This document shows positions 8,859-26,723 of a DNA stretch of 64,000 nt, one piece after another. The notes below the pieces were generated by a model. That model was not told where the DNA came from, did no database searches, and worked only from the letters and a program-made list of their open reading frames with translations. Source of the stretch: Candidatus Didemnitutus sp. (GTDB lineage: Bacteria > Verrucomicrobiota > Verrucomicrobiia > Opitutales > Opitutaceae); the NCBI GenBank assembly GCA_036499305.1, contig DASYDZ010000209.1, positions 12-64,011 of the forward strand. Direction: 5' to 3'. A program made the position numbers and the translations under genes. Numbering within the stretch: the first letter of the stretch is position 1; each line of letters starts with the position of its first letter.

Positions 8859-8893
8859 GAAGGCGGAGCCGATATGCTCCGCCTTCGTGTTTT
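8859..8893 (+). terminator. Terminator of sigma/anti-sigma operon
   Basis: GAAGGCGGAGC-cgatat-GCTCCGCCTTC followed by gtgtttt. Confidence 0.75.
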
Positions 8894-8956
8894 CGCGAGG
8901 ATTGCACCGTCGACGCCGGCGCTCTTCCCCAGCTCGGCGTGCGATTAGGATCGTTT

Positions 8957-9120: not shown

Positions 9121-9706
9121 GCGCGCGTTTGATCAAGGCCTCGGTCGAGGCGGTGGGACCGAGCGCGGTCGAGGCCTGCCGGATCGCCTTGTCGGCATCG
9201 GCGGCCTTGTAGCCCAGCGCAACCAGGGCGAGGACGGCGTCGTGCAACCGCGATTCCGGTTGTCCCGCCACGGCGGGCAAAATGGCGGCGGCTGATGACG
9301 TGCCTCCGAGCTTGTCCCGGAGCTCCACGACCAGACGCTCGGCTGTCTTGCGTCCGATGCCCGGGCACTTGGACAGGAGAGCGACGTCGCCCTGTGCAAT
9401 CGCGCCGCGCAGGACGGGCAGGGAGAGCTTGCTGAGCACGGTCAGGGCAGTCTTCGGCCCCACGCCGCTGACCTTCTCGACGAGGAGGCGGAAGAAATCG
9501 CGCTCCTCGTCGGTGGCAAAACCATACATCGTGTGCGCGTCTTCGCGGTAAACCACCAGCGTGTGCAGGATCGCAGCCTTGCCGGGCGCGGGAAGTTTTT
9601 CGGCCGTCGTGACCGGGATGTGCACCTCGTAGGCGATTCCGCCCGTTTCGATCACGGCGGTGAGCGCCGTCGCCGAAAGCAGGGTCCCCGAGATCCGCGT
9701 GATCAT
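9113..9706 (-). CDS. ruvA: Holliday junction branch migration protein RuvA
   Basis: VYREDAHTMYGF, VSGVGPKTAL, CPGIGRKTAERLVVELRDK, ALVALGY. Confidence 0.97.
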   Translation of the reverse strand: MITRISGTLLSATALTAVIETGGIAYEVHIPVTTAEKLPAPGKAAILHTLVVYREDAHTMYGFATDEERDFFRLLVEKVSGVGPKTALTVLSKLSLPVLRGAIAQGDVALLSKCPGIGRKTAERLVVELRDKLGGTSSAAAILPAVAGQPESRLHDAVLALVALGYKAADADKAIRQASTALGPTASTEALIKRALG

Positions 9707-9710
9707 CGGC

Positions 9711-10451
9711 TCAGTCCTTCAAGCCGAGCACATCCTGCATGTCGTAAAGACCCGGCGGGCGCCCGATCACCCAGGTGGCGGCGCGCAGGGCACCGCGGGC
9801 GAAAAGGGCGCGGTCGCTGGCCTTGTGGGTGAGTTCAAGTCTCTCGCCCGGACCCGCAAAGATGACCGTATGGTCCCCGATCACGTCGCCGCCCCGCACG
9901 GCATGGACGCCGATCTCGGAGCGGGTGCGCTCGCCGGTGATGCCGGAGCGACCGTGACGAAGCGCGTCGACGCCCAAGGCACGTCCCTCGCGAACCAGTT
10001 CGAGCAGGCGCACGGCAGTGCCGCTGGGCGCGTCCTTCTTCAGCCGGTGGTGCATCTCGATCAACTCCACGTCGTAGTCGTCCCCGAGCACGCGGGCCGC
10101 GCGCGCGGTGAGCGCGAACAGGAGGTTGACGCCGACCGAAAAGTTGCCCGCCCAGACCGCCGGCACGCGCGCCGCCCGGGCGGCGAGATCCTTTTTCTCC
10201 GCCGCGGAATGTCCGGTCGTTCCGATGATCAGCGGTTTCCCGGCGCCGACGGCGGCATCGATCAACGCGGCGGTCGCGGAAGGAGAGCTGAAGTCCACGA
10301 CGACGTCGCCGAGCGCGAGGGCGGCGGCGAGATTGTCCTTCACATCCACCGATGCGGCGATCGTCAGGCCAACCTCGGCGGCGGCCGTGGCGACGGCCCG
10401 GCCCATTCGACCCGCCGCGCCGTGGAGTATGACCCGCGGGGCGCTGCTCAT
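9711..10451 (-). CDS. dapB: 4-hydroxy-tetrahydrodipicolinate reductase
   Basis: GAAGRMG, VDFS, GTTG, NFSVGVN, EMHHRLKKDAPSGTA. Confidence 0.97.
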   Translation of the reverse strand: MSSAPRVILHGAAGRMGRAVATAAAEVGLTIAASVDVKDNLAAALALGDVVVDFSSPSATAALIDAAVGAGKPLIIGTTGHSAAEKKDLAARAARVPAVWAGNFSVGVNLLFALTARAARVLGDDYDVELIEMHHRLKKDAPSGTAVRLLELVREGRALGVDALRHGRSGITGERTRSEIGVHAVRGGDVIGDHTVIFAGPGERLELTHKASDRALFARGALRAATWVIGRPPGLYDMQDVLGLKD

Positions 10452-11341
10452 CGGCCTTCGAAGGTGTCGAGCACGGCAAAGAGCGTCTTGCGGCTGGTTG
10501 CAGTCAGGCCGCAGAGCGGTGAACGCACCTCCGGGGAGCTGATGATCCCCGCGCGCGCCATGGCGTCCTTGATCGGTGTCGGGTTCGATTCGATGAAGAT
10601 CGCCTTGAAGACGGGATAGAGTTTCCGATGAAGCGCCATCGCCCTAGCGTAGTCCCCGGCCAGGGCGAGCGCGGTGAGGCGTGCCACCGCCCGTGGATAG
10701 AGATTGCTCGCCACGCTGATCACGCCGCGGGCGCCAATGGCCATGAAGGGGAGGGTGAGAGGGTCGTCACCGCTCAGGACCGTGACCGAATCGCCCAAGG
10801 CCTGGGTGAGCTGATCGACGCGGTCGACCGAGCCGCCGGCCTCCTTGATGTGATTGACGTGACGGTACCGGCTGCGGAGACGCTCGACGGTGCCGACACC
10901 GATTTCGATCCCGCAGCGGCCGGGAATCGAATAAAGAATGATCGGCCGGTCGGTTGCCTCGGCGATCGCGGAAAAATGAAGGAACAGGCCTTCCTGGGTC
11001 GGCTTGTTGTAGTAGGGCGCGACGACCAGCATCGCATCCGCCCCTGCGCCGTGGGCCTCCCGGGTCAGGTAGAGCGCCTCCTTGGTGCTGTTCGAACCGG
11101 TGCCGGCGATGACCGGGACGCGACCGCGGGCCTGGTCGATCACCGTGCGGATGACCTCCAAGTGCTCCTCGTAATCGAGGGTGGGAGACTCGCCAGTGGT
11201 GCCAACCGGGACGAGGCCGTTAATTCCCTGTTTAATTTGCCAGTCCACGAGTTTCCGCAATTCGGGGTAGGCCACGGCGCCCTTGGCGAAGGGCGTGACG
11301 AGGGCGGTGATGGCTCCGGTGAACGGGCGCGAGGACTTCAT
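10448..11341 (-). CDS. dapA: 4-hydroxy-tetrahydrodipicolinate synthase
   Basis: ALVTPF, GTTGES, PYYNKPTQ, YSIPGR, catalytic IKEA, SGDD. Confidence 0.97.
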   Translation of the reverse strand: MKSSRPFTGAITALVTPFAKGAVAYPELRKLVDWQIKQGINGLVPVGTTGESPTLDYEEHLEVIRTVIDQARGRVPVIAGTGSNSTKEALYLTREAHGAGADAMLVVAPYYNKPTQEGLFLHFSAIAEATDRPIILYSIPGRCGIEIGVGTVERLRSRYRHVNHIKEAGGSVDRVDQLTQALGDSVTVLSGDDPLTLPFMAIGARGVISVASNLYPRAVARLTALALAGDYARAMALHRKLYPVFKAIFIESNPTPIKDAMARAGIISSPEVRSPLCGLTATSRKTLFAVLDTFEGR

Positions 11342-11421
11342 GAAAGTGTTACCTTGAACGAGAACAGGTAAGCCATTAGGCAAAGCACAGGTTTTAGGCC
11401 GGTTCACGCCCAAAATTCCCG

Positions 11422-12516
11422 ATGAGCATCACAATTCACACCGAGATCATGAATGACCTGTTGAAACTGGCCGTCGACAGCGCCGCCAGCGACATCGTGG
11501 TCAAGTCCAACAAGCCGGGCTACCTGCGGCTGTCCGGCCGGCTCCGGTCGGTGGAGATGGACGTCATCGCGCATGAGCAGGCCGAGGCCTGGGTGAACGA
11601 ACATGTGCCGGAGGTATTTCGATCGAACTGGGATCGCGACGGACAGGTTGACTTCGCCTACGCCGCCACGGATGTCGGCCGCTTTCGCGTCAACGCGTTC
11701 CATCAGCGAGGGACGGTGAGCATCGTCTTCCGCCACATCAAGAGCCGTCCCCCGACCTTCGAGGATCTGAAGCTCGAGTCGGAAGTGCTGATCAAGCTCT
11801 CGCAGGCCAAGGACGGAATTCTGCTGATCTGCGGAGCCACGGGCTCGGGCAAGAGCTCCACCATGGCGGCGATGATGAACTGGATCAACCAGAACATGGA
11901 CAAGCACATCGTGACGATCGAAGACCCGATCGAGTACACGTTTTCGGACGACAAGTCGCTTTTCCAGCAGCGGGAGATCGGCATCGACGTGCCCAGCTTC
12001 GAATTGGCGATCAAATCGGTGCTGCGCCAGAATCCCGACATCATCCTGATCGGTGAAATGCGCGATCGGGAGACGTTCGAGACCGCGATCTCCGCGGCCG
12101 AGACCGGTCACCTCGTGCTCTCCACCATGCACGCGGCCACGGTTGCGCAGTCGCTCACGCGCCTGTTCGAATTCTTCCCGCCGGAGCAGCTCGCGCAGGC
12201 CCGCCGCCAGATTGCGGGTTCGCTGCGTGGCTTCATCTGCCAGAAACTCATCCCCGCGATGGAGGGCGGCGGCCGATTCGCCGCCCACGAGGTCCTGGTC
12301 GCGGACACGACCGTGAGAAACCTCATTCTCGAAGGCCAGAACGACAAGATCCAGCAACTGCTCGATTCGTCGTCCGATGCGATGTCCAAGTCCTTCAACA
12401 AGGACATCTATCGCCTGATCAAGGACGGCAAGATCAGCAAGGCTGACGGATTGAGATTCTCGCCCAACCCGCCCGCCCTGGAGATGAACCTCAAGGGCAT
12501 CTTCTTCAAATCGTGA
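11422..12516 (+). CDS. PilT/PilU-family type IV pilus ATPase
   Basis: GRFRVNAF, Walker A GATGSGKSS, TIEDPIEY, ILIGEMRD, HLVLSTMHA; AIRNLIRE replaced by TVRNLILE. Confidence 0.92.
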   Translation: MSITIHTEIMNDLLKLAVDSAASDIVVKSNKPGYLRLSGRLRSVEMDVIAHEQAEAWVNEHVPEVFRSNWDRDGQVDFAYAATDVGRFRVNAFHQRGTVSIVFRHIKSRPPTFEDLKLESEVLIKLSQAKDGILLICGATGSGKSSTMAAMMNWINQNMDKHIVTIEDPIEYTFSDDKSLFQQREIGIDVPSFELAIKSVLRQNPDIILIGEMRDRETFETAISAAETGHLVLSTMHAATVAQSLTRLFEFFPPEQLAQARRQIAGSLRGFICQKLIPAMEGGGRFAAHEVLVADTTVRNLILEGQNDKIQQLLDSSSDAMSKSFNKDIYRLIKDGKISKADGLRFSPNPPALEMNLKGIFFKS

Positions 12517-13433
12517 TCCGATTTTGCGCGTTGGTGTTGCTGGCCGGCGTCACCATGGCCGGCGCGGCGGACGACGCAAAGGCGCCACTGTCGGAGACCA
12601 GCCGGCAGCTCGACCAGCTCCAGAGGCAGCCAGCCGCCGTCGCGGAGGGAGGGGATAATTCGCTCCGCAGCGCGCTGCCTGCGCTGGGCACGACGCTGAA
12701 GGGGCGCGAGGCGCTGCCTTCCACCGATCCCGGCACCGGCCTGAAGGACCGCAAGCTGAAGACTTCCAGGAAGAATCCGAATCAGAACTGGCTCGTCGAC
12801 GGTTACGAGAAGCTCGATCCCAAGGCGAACCACGACAAGGACGCGGTGCTCCTTCCGGTTGCCGCGGCACCGGCCGACGGCAGCAGGGACGACAAGACGG
12901 ACGAGACGTCCTCCACAAAAATTGACATCTTCTCGCTCTACGAAGCTGACGCCAAGGAACGCGCGTCCTCTGATCGTCCTTCCGAACACAGTCGGTCCAC
13001 CGCGGATCCATTGGCGCCATTCCTGCAGTCATGGCTGAACAAGGCGCCCGATCACGATCTGGTTTTGGCCGACGCTTCGAAGCCCGACGGTGCTCCCGGC
13101 GGCCTCCCGACGTTTGGCGCCGCTCCGGTTCCGGCGGCGGACGGGGCATCGACCGCATTGATTTTGGATTTTGGAAAAAGCGCGGGAGACGCACCATCGA
13201 ACCCGTATCTCGCCAGTCTTTCGCTTCCTTCGCTCGAAGCATTGACCCCGGCTTCGACCCCAGCGCTGGCTCCGATGCTTCCGGACTTCGGGACGCCACC
13301 TGTCCCGTCCAAAAACAATCTCGGTTTGCCGCCGGACAGCCTGCTGCCGGCGGGCAGGGTGGATGGCCGAAAACCGCCTCCTTCCCCGGCCGACGAGGAC
13401 CGCAAGTATTTCCCTCAGCTCAACCGCTTTTAG
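12513..13433 (+). CDS. Hypothetical secreted low-complexity protein
   Basis: GTGA overlap with the ATPase gene; signal peptide; P/A/S/D-rich; ends DEDRKYFPQLNRF. Confidence 0.7.
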   Translation: MIRFCALVLLAGVTMAGAADDAKAPLSETSRQLDQLQRQPAAVAEGGDNSLRSALPALGTTLKGREALPSTDPGTGLKDRKLKTSRKNPNQNWLVDGYEKLDPKANHDKDAVLLPVAAAPADGSRDDKTDETSSTKIDIFSLYEADAKERASSDRPSEHSRSTADPLAPFLQSWLNKAPDHDLVLADASKPDGAPGGLPTFGAAPVPAADGASTALILDFGKSAGDAPSNPYLASLSLPSLEALTPASTPALAPMLPDFGTPPVPSKNNLGLPPDSLLPAGRVDGRKPPPSPADEDRKYFPQLNRF

Positions 13434-13479
13434 TGCTTGGTATTTGGGTGCGGGGGCGGTTTAACCGCTCCTTTCATCT

Positions 13480-14385
13480 ATGTCGTTGGCACTACTTTTT
13501 GCCGGTCAGGGAGCTCAAAAGGTCGGCATGGGTCGAAGCCTTTGCGACGTTTCCTATTCGGCTCGAGCGCTTTACGACCAAGCGGACCAGGTGTTGGGTT
13601 GGGCGCTGTCCCAGGTCAGTTTCGAGGGCCCGGAAACGGAATTGACCCAAACCAAGGCCTGTCAGCCGGCGCTGTTCGTGCATGGGCTGGCGACGTTGGC
13701 TGCATTCCAGGAATGTGGCCACGCCAAGGACCCTAAGTTCGCATTGGGATTGAGCTTGGGCGAGGTGACAGCGCTGACCGCCGCGGGTGTATTTGATTTT
13801 GCGACCGGACTGAAGGTGGTCGCGGAACGAGGACGGTTGATGCAGATGGCGTGCGAAAAGACGACCGGTGCGATGGCGGCGGTGATCGGTGAGGAACGAG
13901 CGAAGGTGGCGGAATTGGCGGCGGACTTCGGCGTCGAAGTCGCCAACTACAATGCCCCGGGCCAGGTCATTGTGTCGGGGGAGAAGGCCTCGATCGACAG
14001 GTTGGTGGCCGCAGCCAAGGACCGCGGATTGAAGCGCGTGATGCCGCTCAATGTCGCCGGTGCCTACCACAGCAGGTTGATGGAACCGGCGCGGGCCGGG
14101 TTCGCGGATTTCCTGCGCGGGGTCGCGTTTCACGCGCCAAAATTCACGGTTTTCAGCAATACGACCGGGCGGCCCGTCACCAGCGTCGAGGAGATCCGCG
14201 AGGCTCTCGTGCGTCAGGTGGTGTCCTCCGTACTTTGGGAGGACTGCATGCGAAACTGCGCGGCCGCGGGCGCGACCGGGTTCATCGAATGCGGGCCCGG
14301 TGCGGTGCTGGCCGGCCTGGCACGGCGCACGGAAAAGTCCTGGGTCGTGAAATCGGTGTCCGAAGCGGCGGACCTCGCGGCGTGA
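13480..14385 (+). CDS. fabD: Malonyl-CoA:ACP transacylase
   Basis: FAGQGAQ, QPALF, GLSLGE (catalytic Ser), AGAYHS. Confidence 0.95.
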   Translation: MSLALLFAGQGAQKVGMGRSLCDVSYSARALYDQADQVLGWALSQVSFEGPETELTQTKACQPALFVHGLATLAAFQECGHAKDPKFALGLSLGEVTALTAAGVFDFATGLKVVAERGRLMQMACEKTTGAMAAVIGEERAKVAELAADFGVEVANYNAPGQVIVSGEKASIDRLVAAAKDRGLKRVMPLNVAGAYHSRLMEPARAGFADFLRGVAFHAPKFTVFSNTTGRPVTSVEEIREALVRQVVSSVLWEDCMRNCAAAGATGFIECGPGAVLAGLARRTEKSWVVKSVSEAADLAA

Positions 14386-14440
14386 CACCAACGTTTGCCG
14401 TCCACGCCGAAATGACCGATCCTTCGTTTCCCGATCCGCT

Positions 14441-16243
14441 TTGAACGACGCCCCCTACACCCGGAATTTCTGCATCATCGCCCATGTCGATCATGGGAAG
14501 ACGACGCTGTCCGACCGTTTGCTGGAATTCACCAGCACCATCACCAAGCGGGTGATGACCGACCAGCATCTCGACTCGATGGACCTGGAGAAGGAGCGGG
14601 GCATCACCATCAAGATGCATCCGGTGACGATGACCTACCCGGCGAAGGATGGGAAAATCTACAAGCTGAACCTGATGGACACGCCGGGCCACGTCGATTT
14701 CAGCTACGAGGTCTCGCGTTCGCTCGCGGCGTGCGAAGGCGCCCTGCTGCTCATCGACGCCGCGCAGGGGGTCGAGGCCCAGACGGTGGCAAATGCGCAC
14801 CTGGCCTTTGCGCAGGGCCTCAAGGTGATTCCGGTCATCAACAAGATCGACCTTCCCAGCGCCAACCTCGAGCTGTGCATCCGCCAACTGGAGGATATTT
14901 TGACCATTCCGGCGGAGGAGGCGATCCTGGCCAGCGGCAAGTCCGGCATCGGCATTTCCGAGATCCTCGAGGCGGTCGTGACCCGCATCCCGCCGCCACG
15001 CTGGACGGACTATCCGACGACGCGGATGCTGGTGTTCGACTCCAGATACGATTCGTACCGCGGGGTCATTTCCCACGTCCGTGTGTTTTCGGGCACCTTC
15101 CGCGCCGGCGAGATCATGATGCTGATGAGCTCGGGCCAGAAGTCCGAGATCAAGGAGGTCGGCATGTTTCATCCCGTTCCGGTGAAATGCGACAAGCTCG
15201 GCCCCGGCGACGTCGGTTACATCGTCAGCAACATCAAGAGCGTCGACGAGATCAAGGTCGGCGACACGGTGACGCATGCCAACAAACCGGCGGCGGAGAT
15301 GCTGCCCGGCTACAAGGAGGTGCACCCGATGGTGTACTGCGGACTCTACCCGCTGGAATCGAGCGACTACGAAAAACTCAAGGTGGCGCTCGGCAAGCTG
15401 CGCCTGAACGACTCGGCGCTGATCTACTCGAACGAGACCTCGGTGGCCCTTGGTTTCGGCTTCCGCTGCGGTTTCCTCGGCCTGCTGCACATGGAGGTCA
15501 TCCAGGAGCGCATTCGCCGCGAATACGACGTGGAGATCATTTCAACTTACCCGAGCGTCGTCTACCGGGTGAAGAAGCATGGCGGCGAGGTGATCGAGGT
15601 GGACAATCCGGTCAACCTGCCGGATCCGGCGAGCATCGCGGAAATTTCGGAACCCATGATCAAGGCGTCGATCCATATCCCGAACGAATATCTCGGCGAC
15701 ATGCTCAGCCTGATCATGGAGAAGCGCGGCACGTGCGATCACACCGACACCCTCGACGGTTCGCGGGTCATGTTGACGTGCACCCTGCCGCTGAACGAGA
15801 TCCTGGTGGACTTCAACGACCGGCTGAAGAGCATCACGCGCGGGTATGGCTCGATGGATTATGAACTCGGCGAATACCGGCCGTCGGACCTGGTGAAGAT
15901 GGAAATCCTGGTCAACAGCGACCCGGTCGACGCCTTCGCCAGCATCGTGCACCGTTCGAAAGCCGAAGGGCAGGGGCGCCAGCTCTGCGAAAAGCTGGCG
16001 GACATCATCCCGCCGCAGCTCTTCAAGATCGCGGTCCAGGCCGCCATTGGCGGCAAAATCATCGCGCGCGACAATGTCCGCGAAATGCGGAAGGATGTCA
16101 CCGAGAAATGCTACGGCGGCGACATCAGCCGAAAGCGGAAGTTGCTCGACAAGCAGAAGGAGGGCAAAAAGAAGATGAAGCAGATCGGCCGCGTCTCGAT
16201 TCCTCCGGACGCCTTCATCCAGGTGCTCAAGACCAACAACTAG
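14441..16243 (+). CDS. lepA: Elongation factor 4 (LepA)
   Basis: RNFCIIAHVDHGKTTL, ERGITIK, DTPGHVDF, NKID, CYGGDISRKRKLL; TTG start. Confidence 0.98.
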   Translation: MNDAPYTRNFCIIAHVDHGKTTLSDRLLEFTSTITKRVMTDQHLDSMDLEKERGITIKMHPVTMTYPAKDGKIYKLNLMDTPGHVDFSYEVSRSLAACEGALLLIDAAQGVEAQTVANAHLAFAQGLKVIPVINKIDLPSANLELCIRQLEDILTIPAEEAILASGKSGIGISEILEAVVTRIPPPRWTDYPTTRMLVFDSRYDSYRGVISHVRVFSGTFRAGEIMMLMSSGQKSEIKEVGMFHPVPVKCDKLGPGDVGYIVSNIKSVDEIKVGDTVTHANKPAAEMLPGYKEVHPMVYCGLYPLESSDYEKLKVALGKLRLNDSALIYSNETSVALGFGFRCGFLGLLHMEVIQERIRREYDVEIISTYPSVVYRVKKHGGEVIEVDNPVNLPDPASIAEISEPMIKASIHIPNEYLGDMLSLIMEKRGTCDHTDTLDGSRVMLTCTLPLNEILVDFNDRLKSITRGYGSMDYELGEYRPSDLVKMEILVNSDPVDAFASIVHRSKAEGQGRQLCEKLADIIPPQLFKIAVQAAIGGKIIARDNVREMRKDVTEKCYGGDISRKRKLLDKQKEGKKKMKQIGRVSIPPDAFIQVLKTNN

Positions 16244-16253
16244 ACCTTCCCCC

Positions 16254-17588
16254 GTGTTTTCATTCCTGTTTTCCGAGGAAAAAAAGGTGCGCGGGCATGC
16301 GGCCAACTGGCTGGAGGTGGCGAACCGGGTCTATCATTTCCGGCGCGATCTCCTGAGCGAGGTGGAACTGCGAAGGCTGACCGGGGCGCGCGATGACCTG
16401 AGGCAAAAGCTCCGGGAACACGCCAGGGTCCCGGTGCTCAAGGCCGCCGTGGAGAAGCTCGAGGCGGTCCTGCGCGAGACCGGCGGACGGCAGTACCCGG
16501 TCACGTCCATCGTCGAGAACGTCGAGTTCTTTCTCGTCGCCGCGATCGTGATCCTCGGACTGCGCGCGTATTTCGTGCAGCCCTTCAAGATTCCCACCAA
16601 CTCGATGTGGCCGACGTACAACGGCATGACCCAGGAGACATTCCGGGCGGGCGAGGCTCCCGGGCCGCTGGCGCGGGTGGGGCGCCTCATCGCGTACGGA
16701 GCGACCCGCCGGACGATCACCGCCCCGGCCGATGGCGAACTGATGGTGCCGTTCTGGGGCAATGGATACGTTGCCTACAATGAGCGGCCGGGGAAATCGA
16801 TGTACGTGTTCCCCGCGGTGGTCCGCCAATATGTTTTCCGGGTGGAGAATCGCGACGCGACCGTCGAGGTGCCGCAGGATTTCAGCGGCATGGACGCCGT
16901 GCTCGAGGACACGATGGGCGACGGCAAGGGCTCGTGGAAGGCGGGCCTGCGCGAACGGGTGTTCAAGCTGGGCCAGTCCTCGCCCGCACTGGTGCAGAAC
17001 CTGGAGGACGGTGGAAAGGAGTTTCCGGGGAATGCCATCTGGGTGCCGACCGGACGCATGGTGCACCGGGGAGAGCCGATCGCGACCTTCGACATCCTGA
17101 CCGGTGATCTGCTTTTCGTGGAGCGGATCTCTTACAATTTTATCCAGCCGAAGGTCGGTCAGGGGTTCGTGTTCAAGACCGAGAACATCCACAGCGTGCA
17201 CATGAAGAAGGGCGACGAGCAGATCCGGTCGTATTACATCAAACGGCTCGTCGGCACGCCGGGCGACACCCTGGAGGTGCGGCCGCCGGTCCTGATCCGA
17301 AACGGCAAGCCGATCGACGGCGCGGATGCGTTTCAGAAGAACGCGGTGATGGAGGGGAAATATCCCGGATACACGTTCATGAACAGCGAACGCCGGGACG
17401 GTGGCGAGACCCTGACCGGACCCGGTGCGACCGTGACCGTGCCGGACCACCGGTATTACGCCATGGGCGACAACTCTCCGATCAGCGCCGACAGCCGCTT
17501 CTGGGGCTTCGTGCCCGACAAGGACGTTGTTGGCCGTCCGCTGTTCATCTATTATCCGCTGAGCAGCCGCTGGGGACCGGCGCACTAG
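16254..17588 (+). CDS. lepB: Signal peptidase I with extended N-terminus
   Basis: QPFKIPTNSMWPT, YIKRLVG, GDN...SADSRFWGFVP; GTG start. Confidence 0.93.
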   Translation: MFSFLFSEEKKVRGHAANWLEVANRVYHFRRDLLSEVELRRLTGARDDLRQKLREHARVPVLKAAVEKLEAVLRETGGRQYPVTSIVENVEFFLVAAIVILGLRAYFVQPFKIPTNSMWPTYNGMTQETFRAGEAPGPLARVGRLIAYGATRRTITAPADGELMVPFWGNGYVAYNERPGKSMYVFPAVVRQYVFRVENRDATVEVPQDFSGMDAVLEDTMGDGKGSWKAGLRERVFKLGQSSPALVQNLEDGGKEFPGNAIWVPTGRMVHRGEPIATFDILTGDLLFVERISYNFIQPKVGQGFVFKTENIHSVHMKKGDEQIRSYYIKRLVGTPGDTLEVRPPVLIRNGKPIDGADAFQKNAVMEGKYPGYTFMNSERRDGGETLTGPGATVTVPDHRYYAMGDNSPISADSRFWGFVPDKDVVGRPLFIYYPLSSRWGPAH

Positions 17589-17589
17589 G

Positions 17590-17920
17590 TTTGCTGTGAC
17601 CGGGGCAGGTTGTAGTCGGAGGGGTCCTATCCCGGATGTCGCCCGATCTTTGGCGTCGACCCGAATCTCACGAAGCTGATGTAGCCGGGGGCGTCCGACC
17701 CCGGTGATCTCACGATGTTTGGGATCGTTCGTTGTATCCGTCAGATCGACCGGAGCGTTTGCCGGGCCCAACGGGCCCGGCTACAATCGATCCACGGTAG
17801 GGACGCTTTGTTTTGATGTAGCCGGGGCGTGACCTCGGGGTCTTATGTGCTCTGTGGGGTCGGATTGGTCTCTCAAGACTCAGGATGTGTTGGACCGGCC
17901 TCTTCGGATCCGGTTACACC
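17590..17920. repeat. Cluster of GTAG-type REP-like palindromes
   Basis: TGTAGTCGGA..., TGTAGCCGGGGGCGTCCGACCCCGG, GCCGGGCCCAACGGGCCCGGCTACA (inverted), TGTAGCCGGGGCGTGACCTCGGGG, ACCGGCCTCTTCGGATCCGGTTACA (inverted). Confidence 0.7.
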
Positions 17921-17925: not shown

Positions 17926-17953
17926 ACAACGCACAATATATATTATGTCTAGT
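17926..17953. other. dif-like XerC/XerD chromosome dimer resolution site
   Basis: ACAACGCACAA-TATATA-TTATGTCTAGT versus E. coli dif GGTGCGCATAA-TGTATA-TTATGTTAAAT; AT-rich, intergenic, between convergent operons; KOPS polarity flips across it. Confidence 0.8.
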
Positions 17954-17979: not shown

Positions 17980-18912
17980 TCAGGCGCCCAGATGCTCCCG
18001 GATCGCACCTGTCACCTGCTCCCGGCCGTCTTCGATCAGGTAATGTCCGGCGTCAGCGAGATAGTCCGCCTTCGCCTCCGGTAGAATTGCGCGCCAGCGC
18101 TCGAAATAGTGGCGGTTGAAACAGAAATCCCGCGCGCCCCAGATGATCCGGATCGGACGCTCGCGCAGCTTCGGCAGGCTGGATTCGATCCCGGCCAGCG
18201 CGGAATCGGACGCTGTCCCCTTGCCGCTTGGAATATCCCGCACGAATCGATGAACCGCGATTCGGTTGGCCCAGGAATCGTATGGAAAGAGAAATCCATC
18301 CCGGACCGGCCCCGGCAATCTCTTGGTCACGGCCATCCAGGTCGCCGGCCCGGCAAATCCGTTCAGGCCCCGCACCAGCAGTTCGCCGATCACGGGTGCG
18401 CGACACGCCCGGATCCGCAGCGGGATCTTGGTGTCGGCGAAAGCCGCGGTATTCAGGATGACCACCTTCCCGAGTTTCTCCCCGAGCGGCAGCATTGCCC
18501 CCAGCCCGATCGGCCCTCCCCAATCGTGCACGATCAGATGGATTTTGCGCAAACCGAGGCGGTCCACCAGTCCGCGCAGATTGGCGATATGATTGGGCAG
18601 CGAATAATCATAATCCTGGGGCTTGTCGGACAGGCCGCAGCCGAGATGGTCCAGCGCCACGCAACGGATTGAATCGCGCAGCGCGAGGATCACGGACCGG
18701 TAGAAAAACGACCAGGTCGGATTTCCATGCACCATCAGGACCGCTTCGTCGCCCACTCCTTCGTCCAGATAACTCATCGTTCCGGCGGGCGTCTCATGTC
18801 GGCGCGGTGAAAACGGATAGATCGCCCGCAGCCATTCGGGCAGCTCCGCCGGCGGGCGGGCCACAGATCCGGATTCACTCCGCACAGTGTCAGCGGTCAC
18901 GGCGGTTACCAT
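17980..18912 (-). CDS. oleB: OleB-like alpha/beta hydrolase (haloalkane dehalogenase-like beta-lactone decarboxylase)
   Basis: HGNPTWSFFY, HDWGG (Asp nucleophile), DAGHY; start overlaps the oleA stop. Confidence 0.82.
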   Translation of the reverse strand: MVTAVTADTVRSESGSVARPPAELPEWLRAIYPFSPRRHETPAGTMSYLDEGVGDEAVLMVHGNPTWSFFYRSVILALRDSIRCVALDHLGCGLSDKPQDYDYSLPNHIANLRGLVDRLGLRKIHLIVHDWGGPIGLGAMLPLGEKLGKVVILNTAAFADTKIPLRIRACRAPVIGELLVRGLNGFAGPATWMAVTKRLPGPVRDGFLFPYDSWANRIAVHRFVRDIPSGKGTASDSALAGIESSLPKLRERPIRIIWGARDFCFNRHYFERWRAILPEAKADYLADAGHYLIEDGREQVTGAIREHLGA

Positions 18913-19943
18913 TCGAGCGCCAGCATCAGGCTGTTGATGCCGCTGCCGATGCCGAGCAGCGCGACCTTGTTCCCCTCGGCCACCGCCCCCGCCTGCACCG
19001 CCAAGGCCAGCGTGGCCGGCAATGCCGCCGAACCGGTGTTCCCGAGCGTTTCGAAAGTCGAATGGTCCCGCGCGAGGTCGAGCTCCAGGGCTTCGTACAG
19101 CTTGCGGCGATGCGTCGAGCCGACCTGGTGACAAATGAAGCGGTCGATTTGCGCGCGGGTCCACCCGGTCTCCTGCTCGAATTTCGCCCACGTCTCGGTG
19201 GCGGCCGCAATTCCGGCGATCAGGAGCTGTTCGGAATCGGTCTGCATCTCCAGGCCGTCCCCCGCGCTGTCGCCCTGGCAGAGCTCGCTGAATTGCGTCG
19301 CGGCATGAAACGCCCCCGCGACCACGCGATGCCGGCGCGCCCCCGGCGCCAGGAGATCCTCGTGGCAGACCACGGCTGCCACCGCGGCCGACCCGATCGT
19401 GAGATTGGCGAAGTATGGCTTGATCGTCTGGCGATCGAGCGGAGCGGTCAGGAGATGTTCAATCGTGCGGTCAACCAAGGGGCGTCCGTTTTCGCCGGAG
19501 ACGACGAGTCCGCAGCGAATCTGGTCGGCATCGATCATCGCCCCGACCGTCGCGATGCCGTTGAGGAAACCGAGGCACGCGTTGGAAAGGTCGAAAAGCT
19601 GCACGTTGGCCGGCAGTCCGAGCTGGCGATGAACAAACGAGGCCGTGGCGGGCTCGAGCATGTCGCGGCAGACGGCGGAATGGATCAGGACCTCCACCCG
19701 CCCGGCGCCGACCCGCGATTGCGCCAAAGCCGCCCTGCCCGCCAGGGCGCTGGCGGCGGACGGACGCATCCCGACCGGCCACATGCGGCGCTCCCGGATG
19801 CCGGTCATCAGTTCCAACCGGCCGAATGGAAGTTTCAACCGCTCGTAGACCGGCCGCAGACGTTCCTCGATCTGCGCCGAAGTCCACGTCTCGGCGGGAA
19901 GCGCGGTCGCGATCGATTCAATGCAGACGTGCCCGAATTTCAC
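18906..19943 (-). CDS. oleA: OleA thiolase-fold head-to-head condensing enzyme (FabH-like)
   Basis: GRLELMTGIRERR, LEPATA (Glu), SNACLGF (Cys), CHQVG (His), GNTGSAA (Asn). Confidence 0.9.
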   Translation of the reverse strand: MKFGHVCIESIATALPAETWTSAQIEERLRPVYERLKLPFGRLELMTGIRERRMWPVGMRPSAASALAGRAALAQSRVGAGRVEVLIHSAVCRDMLEPATASFVHRQLGLPANVQLFDLSNACLGFLNGIATVGAMIDADQIRCGLVVSGENGRPLVDRTIEHLLTAPLDRQTIKPYFANLTIGSAAVAAVVCHEDLLAPGARRHRVVAGAFHAATQFSELCQGDSAGDGLEMQTDSEQLLIAGIAAATETWAKFEQETGWTRAQIDRFICHQVGSTHRRKLYEALELDLARDHSTFETLGNTGSAALPATLALAVQAGAVAEGNKVALLGIGSGINSLMLALEW

Positions 19944-19961
19944 GGCGAAGTGCGGGCGCGC

Positions 19962-20798
19962 TCAGGATCGCGGGCCTGATTCCGGCCGCATCGCCAGCCG
20001 GACGATCTCCTGGTCGAAATAATTGCTCCCGAGCCCGGCGTCGGTGACGAGCGTCGTTCCATTGATGCCGCTGCTTCGCTCGCTCAGCAGGAAAGCGGCG
20101 ACGTTGGCCACCTCCTGCGTGGCGAGGTTGCGCTTCCGGAAGGTCAGCTTCTCCGCATACAGGTAGCTTTCGAGGTAACCGGGTATCCCGGCCGAAGCGC
20201 TGGTCTTGAGCGGTCCCGACCCCACGACGTTGAAGCGCACTTCGCCCGCCGCATTGAACGATTTCGCCAGGAAGCGGGCCGTTGACTCGAGCGCCGCCTT
20301 GATCGGACCCATGTAGCCGTAATTGTCCGGGGTCACCAGCAGCGACGAGATTCCGATCGTGACCACCGACGCTTTCGGCGCGAGATGCGGGCGAAAGGCG
20401 CGGGCGAGTTCGACGAGCGAAAAAGCCGAGATGGCGGTCGCCTGCAGGAAGTCCGAGCGTTGCGTTTCCACGAACGGCTTGAATCCGTCGCGGTAGTTGG
20501 CGAAGGCGATCGAATGCACCAGCCCGTGCAACGGGGCGAAGCCGGCGGCCACCACGTCGGCGGCGAGGCGGTCGCACGCGCCCTCCTTTTCAACGTCGCA
20601 GACAAAGACAGGGTTTCCCGCGAGCAGGGTTTCGAGTGATTTCCGCCGTTCCTCTGATCGGACGGCATAGACCACGCGCGCGCCTTCGGCTTCGAGCGTG
20701 GCCGCGACATGCCAGGCGACGCTCTTCCGGTTGGCGACGCCCTGGACGAGAAATGTCTTTCCGGCGATCTGCAGAAAATCGGTTGCCGAAGAGGTCAC
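19962..20798 (-). CDS. fabI: Enoyl-ACP reductase (FabI-like SDR)
   Basis: GVANRKSVAW, HSIAFA, YGYMGPIKAALES, GPLKTSAS. Confidence 0.9.
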   Translation of the reverse strand: MTSSATDFLQIAGKTFLVQGVANRKSVAWHVAATLEAEGARVVYAVRSEERRKSLETLLAGNPVFVCDVEKEGACDRLAADVVAAGFAPLHGLVHSIAFANYRDGFKPFVETQRSDFLQATAISAFSLVELARAFRPHLAPKASVVTIGISSLLVTPDNYGYMGPIKAALESTARFLAKSFNAAGEVRFNVVGSGPLKTSASAGIPGYLESYLYAEKLTFRKRNLATQEVANVAAFLLSERSSGINGTTLVTDAGLGSNYFDQEIVRLAMRPESGPRS

Positions 20799-20850
20799 GG
20801 TCCGGATGCTCCCTGGATCCTGCGGTGAAGGATGAATTGTGAGCTGGCTC

Positions 20851-21306
20851 TCATGCGGGCGACGATGTCGTGACCTGCCCTTCGGGTCGTTTCCAGGCCA
20901 CGGCGAAATCCACGGTCAGGACGCGCTTGTCGCCTTTTTTCATCGTGCCCTTGAGAAAGTGGAAATCTCCCACCGTCTCTGTGCGGCGTACCTCGATGTC
21001 CGTGGTGTCGCCCGGATAAACCGGCAGCCGGAAACGCACATCGGAAACCTTGCTCAGCAACGGGACGCCGCCCGGTCCGCCCGTCCCCGCCTGCAACCGG
21101 GCCATCAGCAGCGCGCCGGCCTGGAAGACCGATTCGCACAGGAGAACACCCGGTGTGATCGGTGCGCCCGGGTAATGCCCGCGATAGAAATCCTCTTCGG
21201 CGCGCCAGGTCCGGCGCGCCACGAGTGTTTCACCCTCGCGCGAGACGATCGAATCGACAAACAGGAACGGCGGGCGGTGCGGGATGAGTTTTTCGACTTC
21301 GTTCAC
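20851..21306 (-). CDS. fabZ: 3-hydroxyacyl-ACP dehydratase (FabZ/FabA family)
   Basis: LIPHRPPFLFVD, GHYPGAPITPGVLLCES; GTG start inferred. Confidence 0.9.
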   Translation of the reverse strand: MNEVEKLIPHRPPFLFVDSIVSREGETLVARRTWRAEEDFYRGHYPGAPITPGVLLCESVFQAGALLMARLQAGTGGPGGVPLLSKVSDVRFRLPVYPGDTTDIEVRRTETVGDFHFLKGTMKKGDKRVLTVDFAVAWKRPEGQVTTSSPA

Positions 21307-21313
21307 GAGGAGA

Positions 21314-22765
21314 TCAGGTTGGAGTGACGACGGCGGGACGGGAGCGGGCGGCCAGGTACTTGTCCACCTGGTTGGCGACAATGACGCCGTAATTGATCGT
21401 GCCAAGCCAGCCCGACATGATGAGTCCCACGGAACCGGCGTGATGGAGACCCGCCACCTGCGCCGGCAGGTCCATCGAGACCTTGAGGCCCTCGAACTTG
21501 GTGCCGAAGGAGGTGCCATTCCAGTGGCGCGTGTAGTACTCGATCGTTCGCGGCGTGGCCGCCTCCGTCCAGTCGATTTTCGCGCGCACCCCGGGGATGA
21601 AGCGCTCGAGACACGTGATCGATTCGTCGATCATCCGCTGCTTTTCCGCCTGGTATTGCTCCGGCGTCAGCGCATTCCAGTCGTCATAGCGCGCATTGAG
21701 CGACACGACCACGGTATAGCGGTCCGAGCCCGGACGTGTGTCCGGGTAATACATCGAAAACGTGCGGCTCGTGGTGTGCTGGTCGGTGAGCGCCTGGCTG
21801 GAAAAATGCGGCTCGTCGGACACGAAGACCAGGTCGCCGATGTGCGGCAGTGTCTCCCCCTTGCGGATGCCCAGATACACCTGGCAGGAGCTGCTGTTGA
21901 CGCGAATGGCGCGCGTGGCGGCGACGAAGTCCGGCGAAAAGTGCTCCTCGCCGGCCAGCTTGAGCACGGTGTTCTTGACGTTGGCATTGGAGAGGACGGC
22001 ATCGCACCGGATCGTGCGGCCGTTCGCGACGACGCCGCGCACCGCCCGCCGGCCGTCGACCTCCTCCACCATGACCTTTTCCACCACCACGTGTTTGCGG
22101 ACCTCCACGCCGTTTTTCTTGAGCTCGGCCGCCATCTTGCGAATCAGGACGTCCGACCCGCCGCGGAACGTGTAGACGCCCTTGCTCATGAAATTGGAGA
22201 AAACAATTCCGAACGTGATCGCCGGATCGTCGAGGGTTGATCCGTTCGCGTAGGCAATCGGCTCCATGAGCAGGCGCTTCACATCGTCGCGTCCCGGGAA
22301 ATAGCGTTCGAACATCGCCCCGGTGGTCTCGGGGTTGTTGTCATAGAAGTTCATCGCCCGGAGATCGGCGAAAAACAACTCCACCGTCGCGTGGGGCACG
22401 CCAAATTTCTCCTGCAAAAGACGCGTGAAGTCCTCCCGGTCGAAGGTCGTGTCGATCTGGAACTGCGGGTTGATGAACCGTACGCCCTTGAGCTGCACGA
22501 TCGAATCGGCGATGTCCTGGCTCCAGTATTTGCGGACGGACTTGATCATCCCGATCGGGAACCCGTGCAGAGAGATGTCGAAGATGTGCCCGCCCTTTCG
22601 CGTGAACCAGGTGGCCAGGCCGCCCAACTGGTAATGGTGTTCGAGCAGCAGCACGCGATGGCCGCATTTGGCCAGCACGTTGGCCCCGGTCATGCCGCCC
22701 AAGCCGCTCCCGACGACCACCACGTCGTAGTGGTCGTCGATGCCTTTAAGCCAGTCGTAGCCCAT
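21314..22765 (-). CDS. Phytoene-desaturase-like (CrtI-type) FAD-dependent oxidoreductase
   Basis: VVGSGLGG dinucleotide motif, [22 protein letters not shown]; inside the fab/ole operon. Confidence 0.85.
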
Positions 22766-22802
22766 GGATGCCCGAAGCTGTGGACCTCGGGCCCCGCGCA
22801 AC

Positions 22803-23669
22803 TCAGAGTTTCAGCGCGCGGAGGTAGGCGATGCTTTCCGGAATGCACTTCAACGGGTCCGGAGTCTCGTCTTCGATGAAATAGTGACGGATCCCGATCT
22901 TCTGGGCCGTCGAGAGGACGGCTTTCCAATCGATCTCGCCCTGCCCGACCGAGACATTATCGGTGGCCGGCGAGGTGGCCCCGTGGTTGACGTCACGCGG
23001 CGCTCCCTTGCGGAGGTCCTTGACGTGCATCAGCACCCAGCGGTCCGGGTATTTCTTGAGCATCGCGACCGGGTCCTGCTCGGCGTGGTAGACCCAGAAC
23101 ACGTCCATCTCGAGGGCGAAGTTCTTCGCCGTGGTGCCCTCGATGAGGATGTCGAAGGCCGTTTTGCCGTTCTCGATGTTCGGCACGAATTCGTAGCCGT
23201 GAGGATGGTAGGCAAAGCGGATGCCAGCCTCCCGGAAGGCCGCGCCCCATTTTTCGAAATTGGCCGCCGCTTCATGGGCGAGGGCGGCGGAAAGCGCGTC
23301 GCCCTGGTGGGGAATCCACGGGACGACGACGTATTTGACCTTCAACGCCTTGGCATTGGCGAGGGCAAGAGGCAGGTCCTTCTGCAATTGCTCATAACCG
23401 AAATGCACGCTGACCGCCTCCAGTCCGCGGCTCTGCACCATCTTGAGGTATTCCGCGGCCGGAACGCTGCTGATGCCCGCGGCCTCGATTTCCCTGATGC
23501 CGTATGCCTTGATCTGGTCGAGCGCCGCACCCTGGTCCTTCTTGACGATGTCGCGCAGGCTCCAGAGCTGGAGGCCGATGTGATCATGGAAATCCACGGA
23601 GGCGAAGGCGGAGGTGGCAATGAAGCAGGCGCCGAGAGCGGCGCGCAAGGGATAACGCAGCAATTTCAT
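22803..23669 (-). CDS. Sugar phosphate isomerase/epimerase-family TIM barrel with signal peptide
   Basis: [33 protein letters not shown]; N-terminal signal peptide. Confidence 0.88.
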
Positions 23670-23698
23670 AATGGGGTTCCGGAAGTTTGAATCCCTGA

Positions 23699-25111
23699 TC
23701 ACGTCTTTTGCAAGATATGATAGTTGGCCATTGAGATCCCGCTCAGCATCGCGCCGATGATGCCGAGAAATCCCTGGTCCGTGCCGCAAAGATAGACGTT
23801 CCCCAGATTCGTCCGGCCGTCGCGAATCTTGTCCGGCGCTCCATAAATCGCGCCCTGCAGATGGCCGGTGAATTTTTCCACCGTTCGCGGCGTGAACATG
23901 TCGCTCGTGACCAGGCGCGAGGCGAGCACGCCATCGTCGACCGGCGGCAGGAAGCGGCGCGCGCTGCGCTGGATGGCGGCGAACCATCGTTCCTTCGCCG
24001 CGCGATAATCGGCCTCCCCCAGCCCAATCCAGCGATCATAGTTCGCCAGGCAGGTGGTGCGAACGAGGCCTTCGGGCAGGTGTTGGTCCCCGAAGTCGAA
24101 ATTGTTCGGCAGGCAGATCACTCCGCTGCGCGGATCGACTTCATCGCCGGGCCGCCGATAGGCAAAGCGGGCGGAGTCGTTGAAAAAGACAATCGTTTCG
24201 TCTCCCCATCCCCACGCCGCCGGTTCCGCGGAAAACACCGAGATCGTCTCGACAAACGACAGGCGCCCGATCGCGCCGGTCGTGGCCTCCAAGGACTCCC
24301 CGCAGAGCCTGCGTGTTTCCGCGGCTCCGGCGGAAGAAAGCACGTGGGCGGCGGTGACCGTTTCGCCGGTCTCGAGCTCGAGAGCCGTGGCGTGGTGCGC
24401 ATCGTGAATGATCCGGCGCACCCCGCATTTCATGCGTCGCTCGCCGCCGGCCGCCCGGAATTTCTCGAGCAGGACGCGGACGATGGTTCGCACACCCTCA
24501 AGCGGGCGGGAGAAGCCCTCGAGAAACAGCGCCTTGAACATGATCACGAACTGCGCGAAATCCATGTCATCCTCCTGCGCACTGCCATAGTACATCAGCG
24601 GGCAGAGGAGCATTTCCGTGAGAAGAGGATCAGACAGGTGTCGCGCGACGATCGCGCGAGCCGACTCCGCCTTCGCATCCAGCGCGGTGTCGTTGTATGC
24701 GCGGACCAGGGCCACCAGCGACCGCCAGCCGTCGATCTGCTGCGGAAAACGGGCCGCCACCTCGGATTCGAGCAGAGCGTAGTCATTGCTGAACCGCAGC
24801 GTGCCGTCGGGAAACGACACGCGGGAACGTTTCTGCGGACACAGGGCGAACTCCTCGCGGTCAATCCGCAGTTGCCGCAGGATTTTGCCGAGCGGTGTCC
24901 CTTTCACGCCCGGGGGAACGAAGTTGGTCAGCGCGTGCAGGCCGACATCAAACTTCCGGCCCCCGAAACTGTAGAAGCTGTTCAGGCCGCCGGGCGCGTT
25001 GTGGCGTTCGAACACGCAGACGCGTTTGCCGAAATGGGCCAGGCGGATACCGGCGGCCAATCCGGACATGCCCGAACCGATGATCGCCACATCGTAGTGG
25101 GAATCTTTCAT
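23699..25111 (-). CDS. Phytoene-desaturase-like (CrtI-type) FAD-dependent oxidoreductase
   Basis: IIGSGMSGLAAG, FERHNAPGGLN, FTPRTVEKFTGH, YLCGTDQGFLGIIGAMLSG. Confidence 0.85.
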   Translation of the reverse strand: MKDSHYDVAIIGSGMSGLAAGIRLAHFGKRVCVFERHNAPGGLNSFYSFGGRKFDVGLHALTNFVPPGVKGTPLGKILRQLRIDREEFALCPQKRSRVSFPDGTLRFSNDYALLESEVAARFPQQIDGWRSLVALVRAYNDTALDAKAESARAIVARHLSDPLLTEMLLCPLMYYGSAQEDDMDFAQFVIMFKALFLEGFSRPLEGVRTIVRVLLEKFRAAGGERRMKCGVRRIIHDAHHATALELETGETVTAAHVLSSAGAAETRRLCGESLEATTGAIGRLSFVETISVFSAEPAAWGWGDETIVFFNDSARFAYRRPGDEVDPRSGVICLPNNFDFGDQHLPEGLVRTTCLANYDRWIGLGEADYRAAKERWFAAIQRSARRFLPPVDDGVLASRLVTSDMFTPRTVEKFTGHLQGAIYGAPDKIRDGRTNLGNVYLCGTDQGFLGIIGAMLSGISMANYHILQKT

Positions 25112-25149
25112 GACCGTGGAACCGCCGAAGGGCGGCAGGCCCGCCGAAA

Positions 25150-25404
25150 TCAGGCCTTGGGCACGAACTTCGGCGTCAGGTAGTCGGCGCAGCTGTCAAG
25201 CGACGCCAATTGCGTGTAGTCCGCCTCCGGCACCTCAATGCCGTGACGTTTCCGCAATTCCATTACGATATCGAGAAAGTCCATCGAATCGAGCTGGAGC
25301 TGGTCGCGCAGGCGGACGTTCGGCTTCACATCGCTCAAGTCCTCGTCGGGCGCGATGTCAGAGATGATGTCGATTACCAGCTTCCTGCACTCGTCTTTCG
25401 TCAT
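25150..25404 (-). CDS. Acyl carrier protein
   Basis: 84 aa, acidic, LQLDSMDFLDIV (phosphopantetheinyl Ser). Confidence 0.93.
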   Translation of the reverse strand: MTKDECRKLVIDIISDIAPDEDLSDVKPNVRLRDQLQLDSMDFLDIVMELRKRHGIEVPEADYTQLASLDSCADYLTPKFVPKA

Positions 25405-25418
25405 GGATGGTCGGTGTT

Positions 25419-26657
25419 TTAGTCGGCGAAGCGCTTGATGATGAGCGTTGAATTGATTCCGAGCATACCAAAGGAATTATTAAGGATGGCGTCAACCCGT
25501 TTAACGGAGCGGGGTTGGTTGAGCACCAGGCCGGGGATATCACATTGGGGATCAAGCTCATCGACATTGATGGTCGGGTGCACCACGCGATCCTCGAAAC
25601 TGGGCAGATTGCCCGCCAATTCGAGGGCTCCGGCGGCCCCCATGGCATGGCCGATGAAGCTCTTGGTATTGTTGATTGCGGCCGGTTCCCGGCGCTCGCG
25701 GAATACCGCGGAAATCGCCACGCATTCCTGGATGTCGCCCTGCGGAGTCGAGGTGGCGTGGGTGTTGACGATGTCGATGTCGTCCACGGTCATCCGGGCC
25801 TTCGTCAGGGCGCGGCGGACGCATTCGGCCTGGCGCTCCGGATTCGGCAGCACGTAGTCGGTGGCGTCCGAATTAACGCAATAGCCCGCGAGTTCGCCAT
25901 AGATCCGGGCTCCCCTCGCCTTCGCATCGTCCAGTCGCTCGAGCGTGTAAATGCAGCCGCCTTCGGAAATGACGATGCCGTTGCGGGCCTTGTCGAACGG
26001 CCGGCTCGCCTTGGTGGGGTCCACGTGCGACGCGAGCGCATTCTGGCTTTTGAATCCGGCAAAGATCCCGAACGTCTGCGGGCTTTCGCTGACGCCGCCG
26101 CCGAACGCAAAGTCCACCTCGCCCAGGCGCAGCATTTGCGCGGCGTGGATCAGGCCCATGTTGCCGGCGGCGCAGGCCGCCCCGATCGTGTACGCGGGAC
26201 CAGTCGTGCCCAGGTTGAGCGACACCTCGCCCGCCGGGCTGTTGGCCACCGTGCGCGGGTTATGGTGGTGGGTCCAGAACTTCGTGTCGTAATTGAATTT
26301 CGAAATGTTGTAGACCTCGTTCTCGGTCTCGACGTTGCCGTGCTCGGTGATCCCGAGAAAAACACCGATCCGGCTGCGATCGCGGTTCTCGAGCGAAACC
26401 CCGGAGTCGGCGAGCGCTTCCCGCGCGCAGTAGATGCTGATGCTGCCCGCGCGCGTGCCGATCCGGACATCCTTCTTGCGCTGGTGCTTCAACGGATCGT
26501 AGCTGCACAACCCCGCCGGCCAGCGGCCCATGTAGCGCACGTCCGTCATCGAGATGCCGGAGACGCCCGCGAGCAGGTTGCGCCGGAATTCGGCGATATT
26601 GTTTCCGTTCGGCGCGGTCAGGCCGATGCCGGTGATCACGATGCGGGCGAGGTCCAT
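25419..26657 (-). CDS. fabF: Beta-ketoacyl-ACP synthase (FabF/FabB family)
   Basis: IVITGIG, AACAAG (Cys), HATST and GHAMGAAG (His/His), NNSFG. Confidence 0.92.
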   Translation of the reverse strand: MDLARIVITGIGLTAPNGNNIAEFRRNLLAGVSGISMTDVRYMGRWPAGLCSYDPLKHQRKKDVRIGTRAGSISIYCAREALADSGVSLENRDRSRIGVFLGITEHGNVETENEVYNISKFNYDTKFWTHHHNPRTVANSPAGEVSLNLGTTGPAYTIGAACAAGNMGLIHAAQMLRLGEVDFAFGGGVSESPQTFGIFAGFKSQNALASHVDPTKASRPFDKARNGIVISEGGCIYTLERLDDAKARGARIYGELAGYCVNSDATDYVLPNPERQAECVRRALTKARMTVDDIDIVNTHATSTPQGDIQECVAISAVFRERREPAAINNTKSFIGHAMGAAGALELAGNLPSFEDRVVHPTINVDELDPQCDIPGLVLNQPRSVKRVDAILNNSFGMLGINSTLIIKRFAD

Positions 26658-26723
26658 GCTCAAGGTCCGGATGAAAACAGATTTGCCTAGCCTATGGCTT
26701 CGGAAAATCAATAACTGTCTCCC

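Follow-up and report, generated by a model that had tools for sequence, protein, structure and literature searches.

The dif site of E. coli, GGTGCGCATAA-TGTATA-TTATGTTAAAT, is the target of the XerC/XerD/FtsK system. In the same organism, GGGNAGGG is the FtsK-orienting (KOPS) motif. Inversion of KOPS at dif is described as the structural hallmark of the system (PMC13342612). Among the Verrucomicrobia, dif sites have been predicted for Methylacidiphilum infernorum (ACTTCGCACAATATATGTTATGTAAAAT), Akkermansia muciniphila (ACTTCGCATAATATATGTAATGCCAAAT) and Opitutus terrae PB90-1 (GCTCCGCATCATGCATGTGATGCGAACA); all three are given in the supplementary table of Kono et al. 2011 (PMC3025954). The dif-to-skew offset of O. 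terrae is 15.8, far above the values of 4.5 and 0.6 listed for the two remaining Verrucomicrobia. Opitutus terrae is also listed among the genomes harbouring XerCD, and the same paper quotes a predicted actinobacterial dif, that of Frankia alni (CACGCCGATAATGCACATTATGTCAAGT) (PMC3025954). Sites of this kind are exploited by Xer-dependent integrative elements (IMEX). Described attP sites are those of CTXphi, VGJphi and TLCphi of Vibrio, and of dif-type double jelly-roll phages (PMC12715192).

We analysed a stretch of 64,000 nucleotides from Candidatus Didemnitutus sp., referred to here as the window. It spans nearly all of a 64,063-bp contig of a fragmented assembly. A 28-bp site, ACAACGCACAATATATATTATGTCTAGT, occupies positions 17926-17953 of the + strand. 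Its letters and 11-6-11 layout are exactly those that a previous sequence-only reading had described. The left arm, ACAACGCACAA (17926-17936, +), aligns with the XerC arms of E. coli and M. infernorum and is the putative XerC-binding arm. It is followed by TATATA (17937-17942, +), the predicted strand-exchange region. The right arm, TTATGTCTAGT (17943-17953, +), aligns with the corresponding arms of E. coli and Frankia and is the putative XerD-binding arm. Around the 6-bp centre the arms are symmetric at 7 of 11 positions, with CACAA and TTATG innermost.

The site is unique in the window. When up to three mismatches were allowed, it was the single match in 64 kb, compared to none expected from 100 dinucleotide-preserving shuffles. 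Neither a further full site nor a half site was found there. The resemblance to E. coli dif, also proposed previously, holds. The site is the top-scoring 28-mer of the window against E. coli dif (19 of 28 positions; runner-up, with both strands searched, 16 of 28). The same is true against the predicted M. infernorum dif (22 of 28; runner-up 17). Rfam returned no family between positions 17300 and 18300. Tyrosine-recombinase box motifs were absent from the window in a regular-expression search of all six frames. We consider it very likely that this 28-mer is the chromosomal dif of an Opitutaceae bacterium, at which XerC and XerD would resolve chromosome dimers near the terminus. The nearest named relative of the window is Candidatus Didemnitutus.

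The site lies in an intergenic gap between converging genes, 337 bp past the lepB stop codon and 26 bp before the stop codon of a hydrolase gene. To the left, lepB (16254-17588, +) encodes signal peptidase I (PF10502, Peptidase_S26, E 4.7e-31) and is preceded by lepA (14441-16243, +). To the right, an OleB-like alpha/beta hydrolase (PF00561 and PF12697) is encoded by 17980-18870 on the - strand; its start is approximate. Both flanking genes converge on the site. They terminate two longer runs, as the sequence-only reading had noted. The + strand run (11422-17588) comprises T2SSE, fabD, lepA and lepB. The - strand run (17980-29132) includes, besides the hydrolase gene, genes for an OleA-like KAS III, an enoyl reductase, a FabA-like dehydratase and a flavoprotein. 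Chromosomal housekeeping genes in the window are ruvA, dapA, dapB, fabD, lepA and lepB.

The spacer between lepB and the site is filled by GTAG-headed, REP-like palindromes (17590-17900, no strand assigned). The motif GTAGCCGGG occurs at 17681 (+), 17818 (+) and 17776 (-), and a GC-rich hairpin follows each copy. This cluster covers about 300 bp to the left of the site. In L213 the equivalent spacer measures about 250 bp, and at other loci (L039, L085, L088, L089, L129-L131, L214 and L215) about 30-110 bp. Since the spacer is shorter in relatives, the REP cluster was inserted locally and does not belong to dif. No RAYT transposase gene was found in the window.

Cumulative GC skew climbs over the first 18 kb, stays level up to 32 kb and then declines to the end of the window at 64 kb. 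The corresponding segment values are +0.034 (0-17.9 kb), +0.004 (17.9-32 kb) and -0.021 (32-64 kb). Skew differs between the two sides of the site (Mann-Whitney p = 1.7e-5). Single change points at 30.5 kb (SSE 0.3034) and 18.0 kb (SSE 0.3046) are essentially tied, with the former marginally best; the value with no split is 0.3601. Skew changes sign within the window. It places the shift there without pinpointing the site, the two being no more than about 13 kb apart. The gene-strand bias switches at the site itself.

The distribution of GGGNAGGG is polarised on either side of the site. Six copies are found to the left, all on the + strand and all directed toward the site (6493, 6498, 9416, 10748, 13352 and 15968; range 6493-15975). 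None occurs on the - strand of this portion. Eight copies to the right are on the - strand and are likewise directed toward the site (18514, 19733, 22939, 27118, 39548, 46624, 47695 and 54584; range 18514-54591). The sole exception in the window is a + strand copy to the right of the site, at 41581. Hence, 14 of 15 motifs point toward the site (binomial p = 4.9e-4) and the strand switch falls between 15968 and 18514. Two of the left motifs are antisense within - strand genes (ruvA and dapA) and two are intergenic. Three of the eight right motifs are antisense within + strand genes. KOPS polarity is therefore not a coding-strand effect: of the 14 concordant motifs, 5 run antisense to the gene in which they lie and two fall between genes.

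The same polarity was seen at related loci. Counts of GGGNAGGG toward and away from the site were 17 and 2 at LepB-ascertained loci (defined below), 21 and 5 at other Opitutia loci, and 36 and 2 at other loci of the Planctomycetes-Verrucomicrobia-Chlamydiae (PVC) superphylum. The pooled set, which includes the 14 and 1 of the window, has 93 motifs directed toward the site and 10 directed away. Four further LepB-ascertained loci add 24 and 1. As compositional controls we used all octamers made up, in any order, of six Gs, a single A and a single N. These octamers were also polarised, with a pooled median of 77% toward the site versus 90% for GGGNAGGG, which was by far the most abundant of the octamers compared. 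Since the controls are polarised too, part of the KOPS signal is general strand asymmetry. General leading-strand G-richness itself marks a replichore switch. An unbiased polarity analysis of 6-8-mers had too little power, in one window, for a KOPS motif to be proposed de novo. The site lies at the replichore junction and fixes the position of this junction in the contig.

Conservation was assessed in two ways. A pattern scan of species-representative genomes with CGCAYAATATATRTTATGT recovered at least 120 loci, a sample and not a census. Of the 28 positions, 19 are dictated by the search pattern; consequently, only loci ascertained through LepB are an unbiased test. The LepB of the window is 84% identical to that of Candidatus Didemnitutus sp., and 53-59% identical to Opitutus, Lacunisphaera and Opitutaceae proteins. 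The LepB-ascertained set has seven Opitutaceae taxa, with LepB 53-84% identical: Opitutus sp. GAS368, Ca. Didemnitutus, Lacunisphaera, two NCBI metagenome-assembled genomes (MAGs) and two JGI metagenome populations. An exact look-up of the window's LepB gave no match; a look-up via FabD gave one JGI contig, which ends inside lepA.

All seven LepB-ascertained taxa have GCACAA-TA(T/G)ATA-TTATGTCT between lepB and the hydrolase gene. That is, a comparison with relatives finds the same core in the same gap in every case. In Opitutus sp. GAS368 (LT629735.1), the predicted position of the site is about 3,820,474 of 4,150,883. The DNA flanking the site cannot be aligned among these relatives, and each host locus has one site only. 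The centre is TATATA in the window and in five of the seven taxa; TAGATA is found in L213 and L214. GCACAA is invariant in all Opitutaceae loci while the outer 4-5 bases of the XerC arm vary. Similarly, TTATGTCT is invariant in relatives and the last 3 bases of the XerD arm vary. The site is under strong purifying selection across the family. The proposal that dif here is near the terminus is supported by the sign change in skew, the KOPS switch that brackets the site, and presence of the site in 7 of 7 LepB-ascertained relatives.

Gene order around the site is also retained. Directly upstream, lepA-lepB is present at L039, L085, L088, L089, L124, L125, L129-L132 and L213-L216. Hydrolase homologues of 265-294 amino acids occupy the same position in relatives. 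Across the sampled Opitutaceae (window 9113-17588; L129-L132 and L213-L216), the order is ruvA-dapB-dapA / T2SSE-ATPase-fabD-lepA-lepB, then dif, then oleB-oleA and the FAS operon. The arrangement of lepA-lepB and dif is retained even where LepB is only 35-41% identical (L124 and L125). Hence, lepA-lepB-dif is a deeply conserved neighbourhood, and more stable than is usual near a terminus.

The site is kept beside inserted genes. A gene encoding 1250-1268 amino acids, with no Pfam match, sits to the right of dif, before the OleB-like hydrolase gene, in L213 (11669-15475) and L215 (11643-15392). Neither the window nor five other relatives have it. In L216, one Opitutaceae population, two transposase genes (Transposase_mut and DDE_Tnp_1; 11442-13905) lie to the left, between lepB and dif. 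The terminus junction gathers insertions and dif itself is retained.

Beyond the Opitutaceae, among the matches listed, the same core was found in other Opitutales and Puniceicoccales loci lacking synteny, with GC contents of 31-63%. Loci L024, L037, L040, L083, L091 and L103 have neither a lepB nor a hydrolase neighbour. The 21-nt core is invariant across genomes of 31-64% GC with flanks that cannot be aligned. Matches listed from the pattern scan were mostly from Proteobacteria with the canonical TTATGTTAAAT arm. Ten of those listed were from Opitutales, Opitutia, Puniceicoccales or Verrucomicrobia. In these the XerD arm is TTATGTC(T/C), either as TTATGTCTAAT or ending CTAGT, CTATA or CTGGT, with CCAAT in L103. 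The XerC arm of the same ten has CGCACAA in seven, and CGCATAA in two Puniceicoccales and L103. The XerD arm of L091, from Puniceicoccales, is identical to TTATGTCTAGT of the window. Pontiella (Kiritimatiellota) has its XerD arm in common with the Opitutia type. Seven metagenome contigs (33-43% GC) carry CGCACAATATATATTATGTCTAGT exactly and likewise have the XerD arm of the window; two of these have lepA-lepB directly upstream.

The sequence-only reading had considered the XerD arm atypical, with CTAGT in place of TAAAT, and possibly lineage-specific. This stands for the C and T at arm positions 7 and 8, but not for the terminal A-G-T. C7-T8 (TTATGTCTA) recurs across the sampled Opitutia and Puniceicoccales among the matches listed. 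The terminal three bases of the arm are ATA, ACT, AAT, CAT or AGT among close relatives, and because of this variation the G of A-G-T carries no lineage signal. The other lineage-specific feature, C at XerC-arm position 9 (CGCACAA; CACAA versus CATAA), is also present in the predicted Methylacidiphilum dif. On the basis of these alignments, the "divergent" arm is mostly the class norm of the Opitutia. The class-specific C7-T8 could serve as a natural experiment on the sequence specificity of XerD.

By homology with E. coli and B. subtilis, binding partners and recombination chemistry can be proposed. Briefly, XerC would occupy ACAACGCACAA on the left and XerD TTATGTCTAGT on the right. Following replication, FtsK anchored at the septum would read the converging GGGNAGGG motifs and translocate toward the site. 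On arrival, FtsK would activate XerD-first strand exchange across TATATA. The expected outcome is conversion of chromosome dimers to monomers, and assistance in the unlinking of sister termini.

A matching site is carried by a group of phages. We scanned IMG/VR for the 21-nt core and recovered one contig, L133, with the site at 330-357. The contig is a fragment of a T7-like phage encoding an RNA polymerase (phrog_414, E 5e-160), a gp2.5-like SSB and endonuclease I. Its 28-mer matches the dif of L088, a low-GC verrucomicrobial genome, at 28 of 28 positions; the two have nothing else in common. We obtained 80 phage relatives via the RNA polymerase, at 70-100% identity (clade loci L136-L211). The nearest RNA polymerases of cultured phages are less than 30% identical. 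Among 31 phage loci in which the sequence preceding the polymerase gene is 4.5 kb or longer, 27 have a dif-like 28-bp site. In these sites the XerD arm is the Opitutia-specific TTATGTC(T/C)AAT, the XerC arm approximates TTCGCACAA and the centre is variable. The position is always the same: the large terminase gene (terL) and a small ORF lie on one side, the early genes on the other. Three 10-mers tie as the most conserved of this region, being present in 25 of 30 distinct phage sequences, and those of the XerD arm belong to this group. Another conserved element outside coding sequence, AAAAATCTGA...TTACGCTATATACGC, was observed about 70 bp upstream of the dif-like site (L133:230-300 and homologous positions in related phage loci; 21-25 of 30 distinct sequences). 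It might act as a promoter or a packaging signal of the phage, or as accessory sequence.

Four long phage loci were inspected for an integrase. No integrase family was present among the best 25 of 35 Pfam families matched by 31 ORFs of at least 130 amino acids. All 15 ORFs of L204 were included; the three other loci contributed only ORFs that do not duplicate the L204 gene set. The phage 28-mers resemble IMEX attP sites in that their Xer-binding arms are conserved and their centre diverges, and in that the portion of phage sequence read yielded no integrase. Unlike the known IMEX phages, which are filamentous or tail-less, the carriers here are T7-like tailed phages known from sequence alone. 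We found no relevant literature on Xer use by T7-like or tailed phages; Xer exploitation was described only for filamentous and tail-less phages.

We regard the phage clade as a candidate for Xer exploitation, in which the site may serve integration at dif or multimer resolution. It is quite possible, though we would not presume it, that the clade exploits the Opitutia-type dif (XerD arm TTATGTCTAAT) and either integrates at, or is resolved through, host XerC/XerD. The matching site would link the phage clade to Opitutia hosts. If the proposal is true, these would be the first Autographivirales-type phages with an IMEX-like lifestyle, and their hosts would be marine or estuarine Opitutia. If confirmed, it would extend Xer exploitation to tailed phages. 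For the host site, the existence of phages that mimic precisely this dif variant supports the view that it is a working Xer target.

The phages bear on a different interpretation of the window. Given that a T7-like clade has dif-like sites of the same type, and that IS elements and a large orphan gene adjoin the site in some relatives, the 28-mer might be the junction or attachment site of an IMEX or prophage and not the primary dif of the host. Such a junction would be expected to come with a second, hybrid dif-like site and with mobile-element genes between the two. Instead, neither the window nor any host locus has another site, full or half, no phage genes flank the site, and no mobile-element genes lie between lepB and the hydrolase gene in the window. 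The order of lepB, site and hydrolase is the same in 7 of 7 relatives. In a tblastx comparison of the phage contig with all host loci, only the 28-mer was in common. An attachment site is thus extremely unlikely. Plasmid multimer-resolution sites of the cer/psi type, which lie on plasmids and have about 180 bp of accessory sequence next to the core, were also considered, but do not fit the chromosomal housekeeping context and unconserved flanks.

The constant company of lepB and the hydrolase gene in many relatives, and the distance of only 26 bp to the hydrolase stop codon, would also suit a conserved cis-regulatory element that merely looks like dif, such as an operator or bidirectional terminator of lepB or the ole/FAS operon. 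We consider this very unlikely. The core is also found in the six Opitutales and Puniceicoccales loci that lack both genes. Where insertions have separated the neighbours, the site stays with lepB in two cases (L213 and L215) but with the hydrolase gene in another (L216). Moreover, it is an AT-rich 11-6-11 sequence, not a GC-rich hairpin with a T-run, and has no Rfam match. Regulation of either gene would leave KOPS convergence unexplained. AT content is higher between genes than within coding DNA, and palindromes of the TATATA type are common in intergenic sequence, so a chance AT-rich palindrome in a GC-rich intergenic region was weighed as well. The absence of expected matches in 100 shuffles, and conservation of the 21-nt core in genomes of widely differing GC content with flanks that cannot be aligned, effectively refute this explanation; its probability is negligible. 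A chromosomal dif is the interpretation that we prefer.

As dif, the site provides a usable consensus for the Opitutia, nnnn(C/G)GCACAA-TA(T/G)ATA-TTATGTCTAnn, which can orient MAG contigs. The consensus can also be applied to re-examine the outlying prediction for O. terrae. The predicted sequence, GCTCCGCATCATGCATGTGATGCGAACA, is unlike the site in the 7 LepB-ascertained Opitutaceae taxa and several metagenome contigs. It is also unlike the site in 11 further pattern-ascertained PVC loci listed, 10 of which are from Opitutia or Puniceicoccales. Because the Opitutaceae site is uniform here and differs from GCTCCGCATCATGCATGTGATGCGAACA, the published O. terrae prediction is, judged by sequence, probably wrong and a false positive.

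Comparison with the remaining described sites places the window's dif within a known type. The predicted site of M. infernorum, from the same phylum, shares the CGCACAA XerC arm and the TATAT centre. Its XerC arm, ACTTCGCACAA, matches ACAACGCACAA at 9 of 11 positions, whereas E. coli GGTGCGCATAA matches at 6 of 11. The XerD arms differ, with GTCTA here and GTAAA in the M. infernorum prediction. The XerD arm of Frankia, TTATGTCAAGT, ends in CAAGT and matches TTATGTCTAGT at 10 of 11 positions, compared to 8 of 11 for E. coli TTATGTTAAAT. Hence, an arm ending C-N-A-G-T is not unprecedented. The XerC arm and centre of Frankia alni, which is from another phylum, are unrelated (4 of 11 and 3 of 6 positions, respectively). 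Differences from E. coli dif are CACAA for CATAA, C-T for T-A at XerD-arm positions 7-8, and TATATA for TGTATA. Conversely, the 11-6-11 layout, the inner TTATG / (C/T)AA half-palindrome, the AT-rich centre, the intergenic gap at a replichore junction and the converging polarity of GGGNAGGG are common to both. We conclude that this is an ordinary feature, a known type of site in a class-typical sequence variant.
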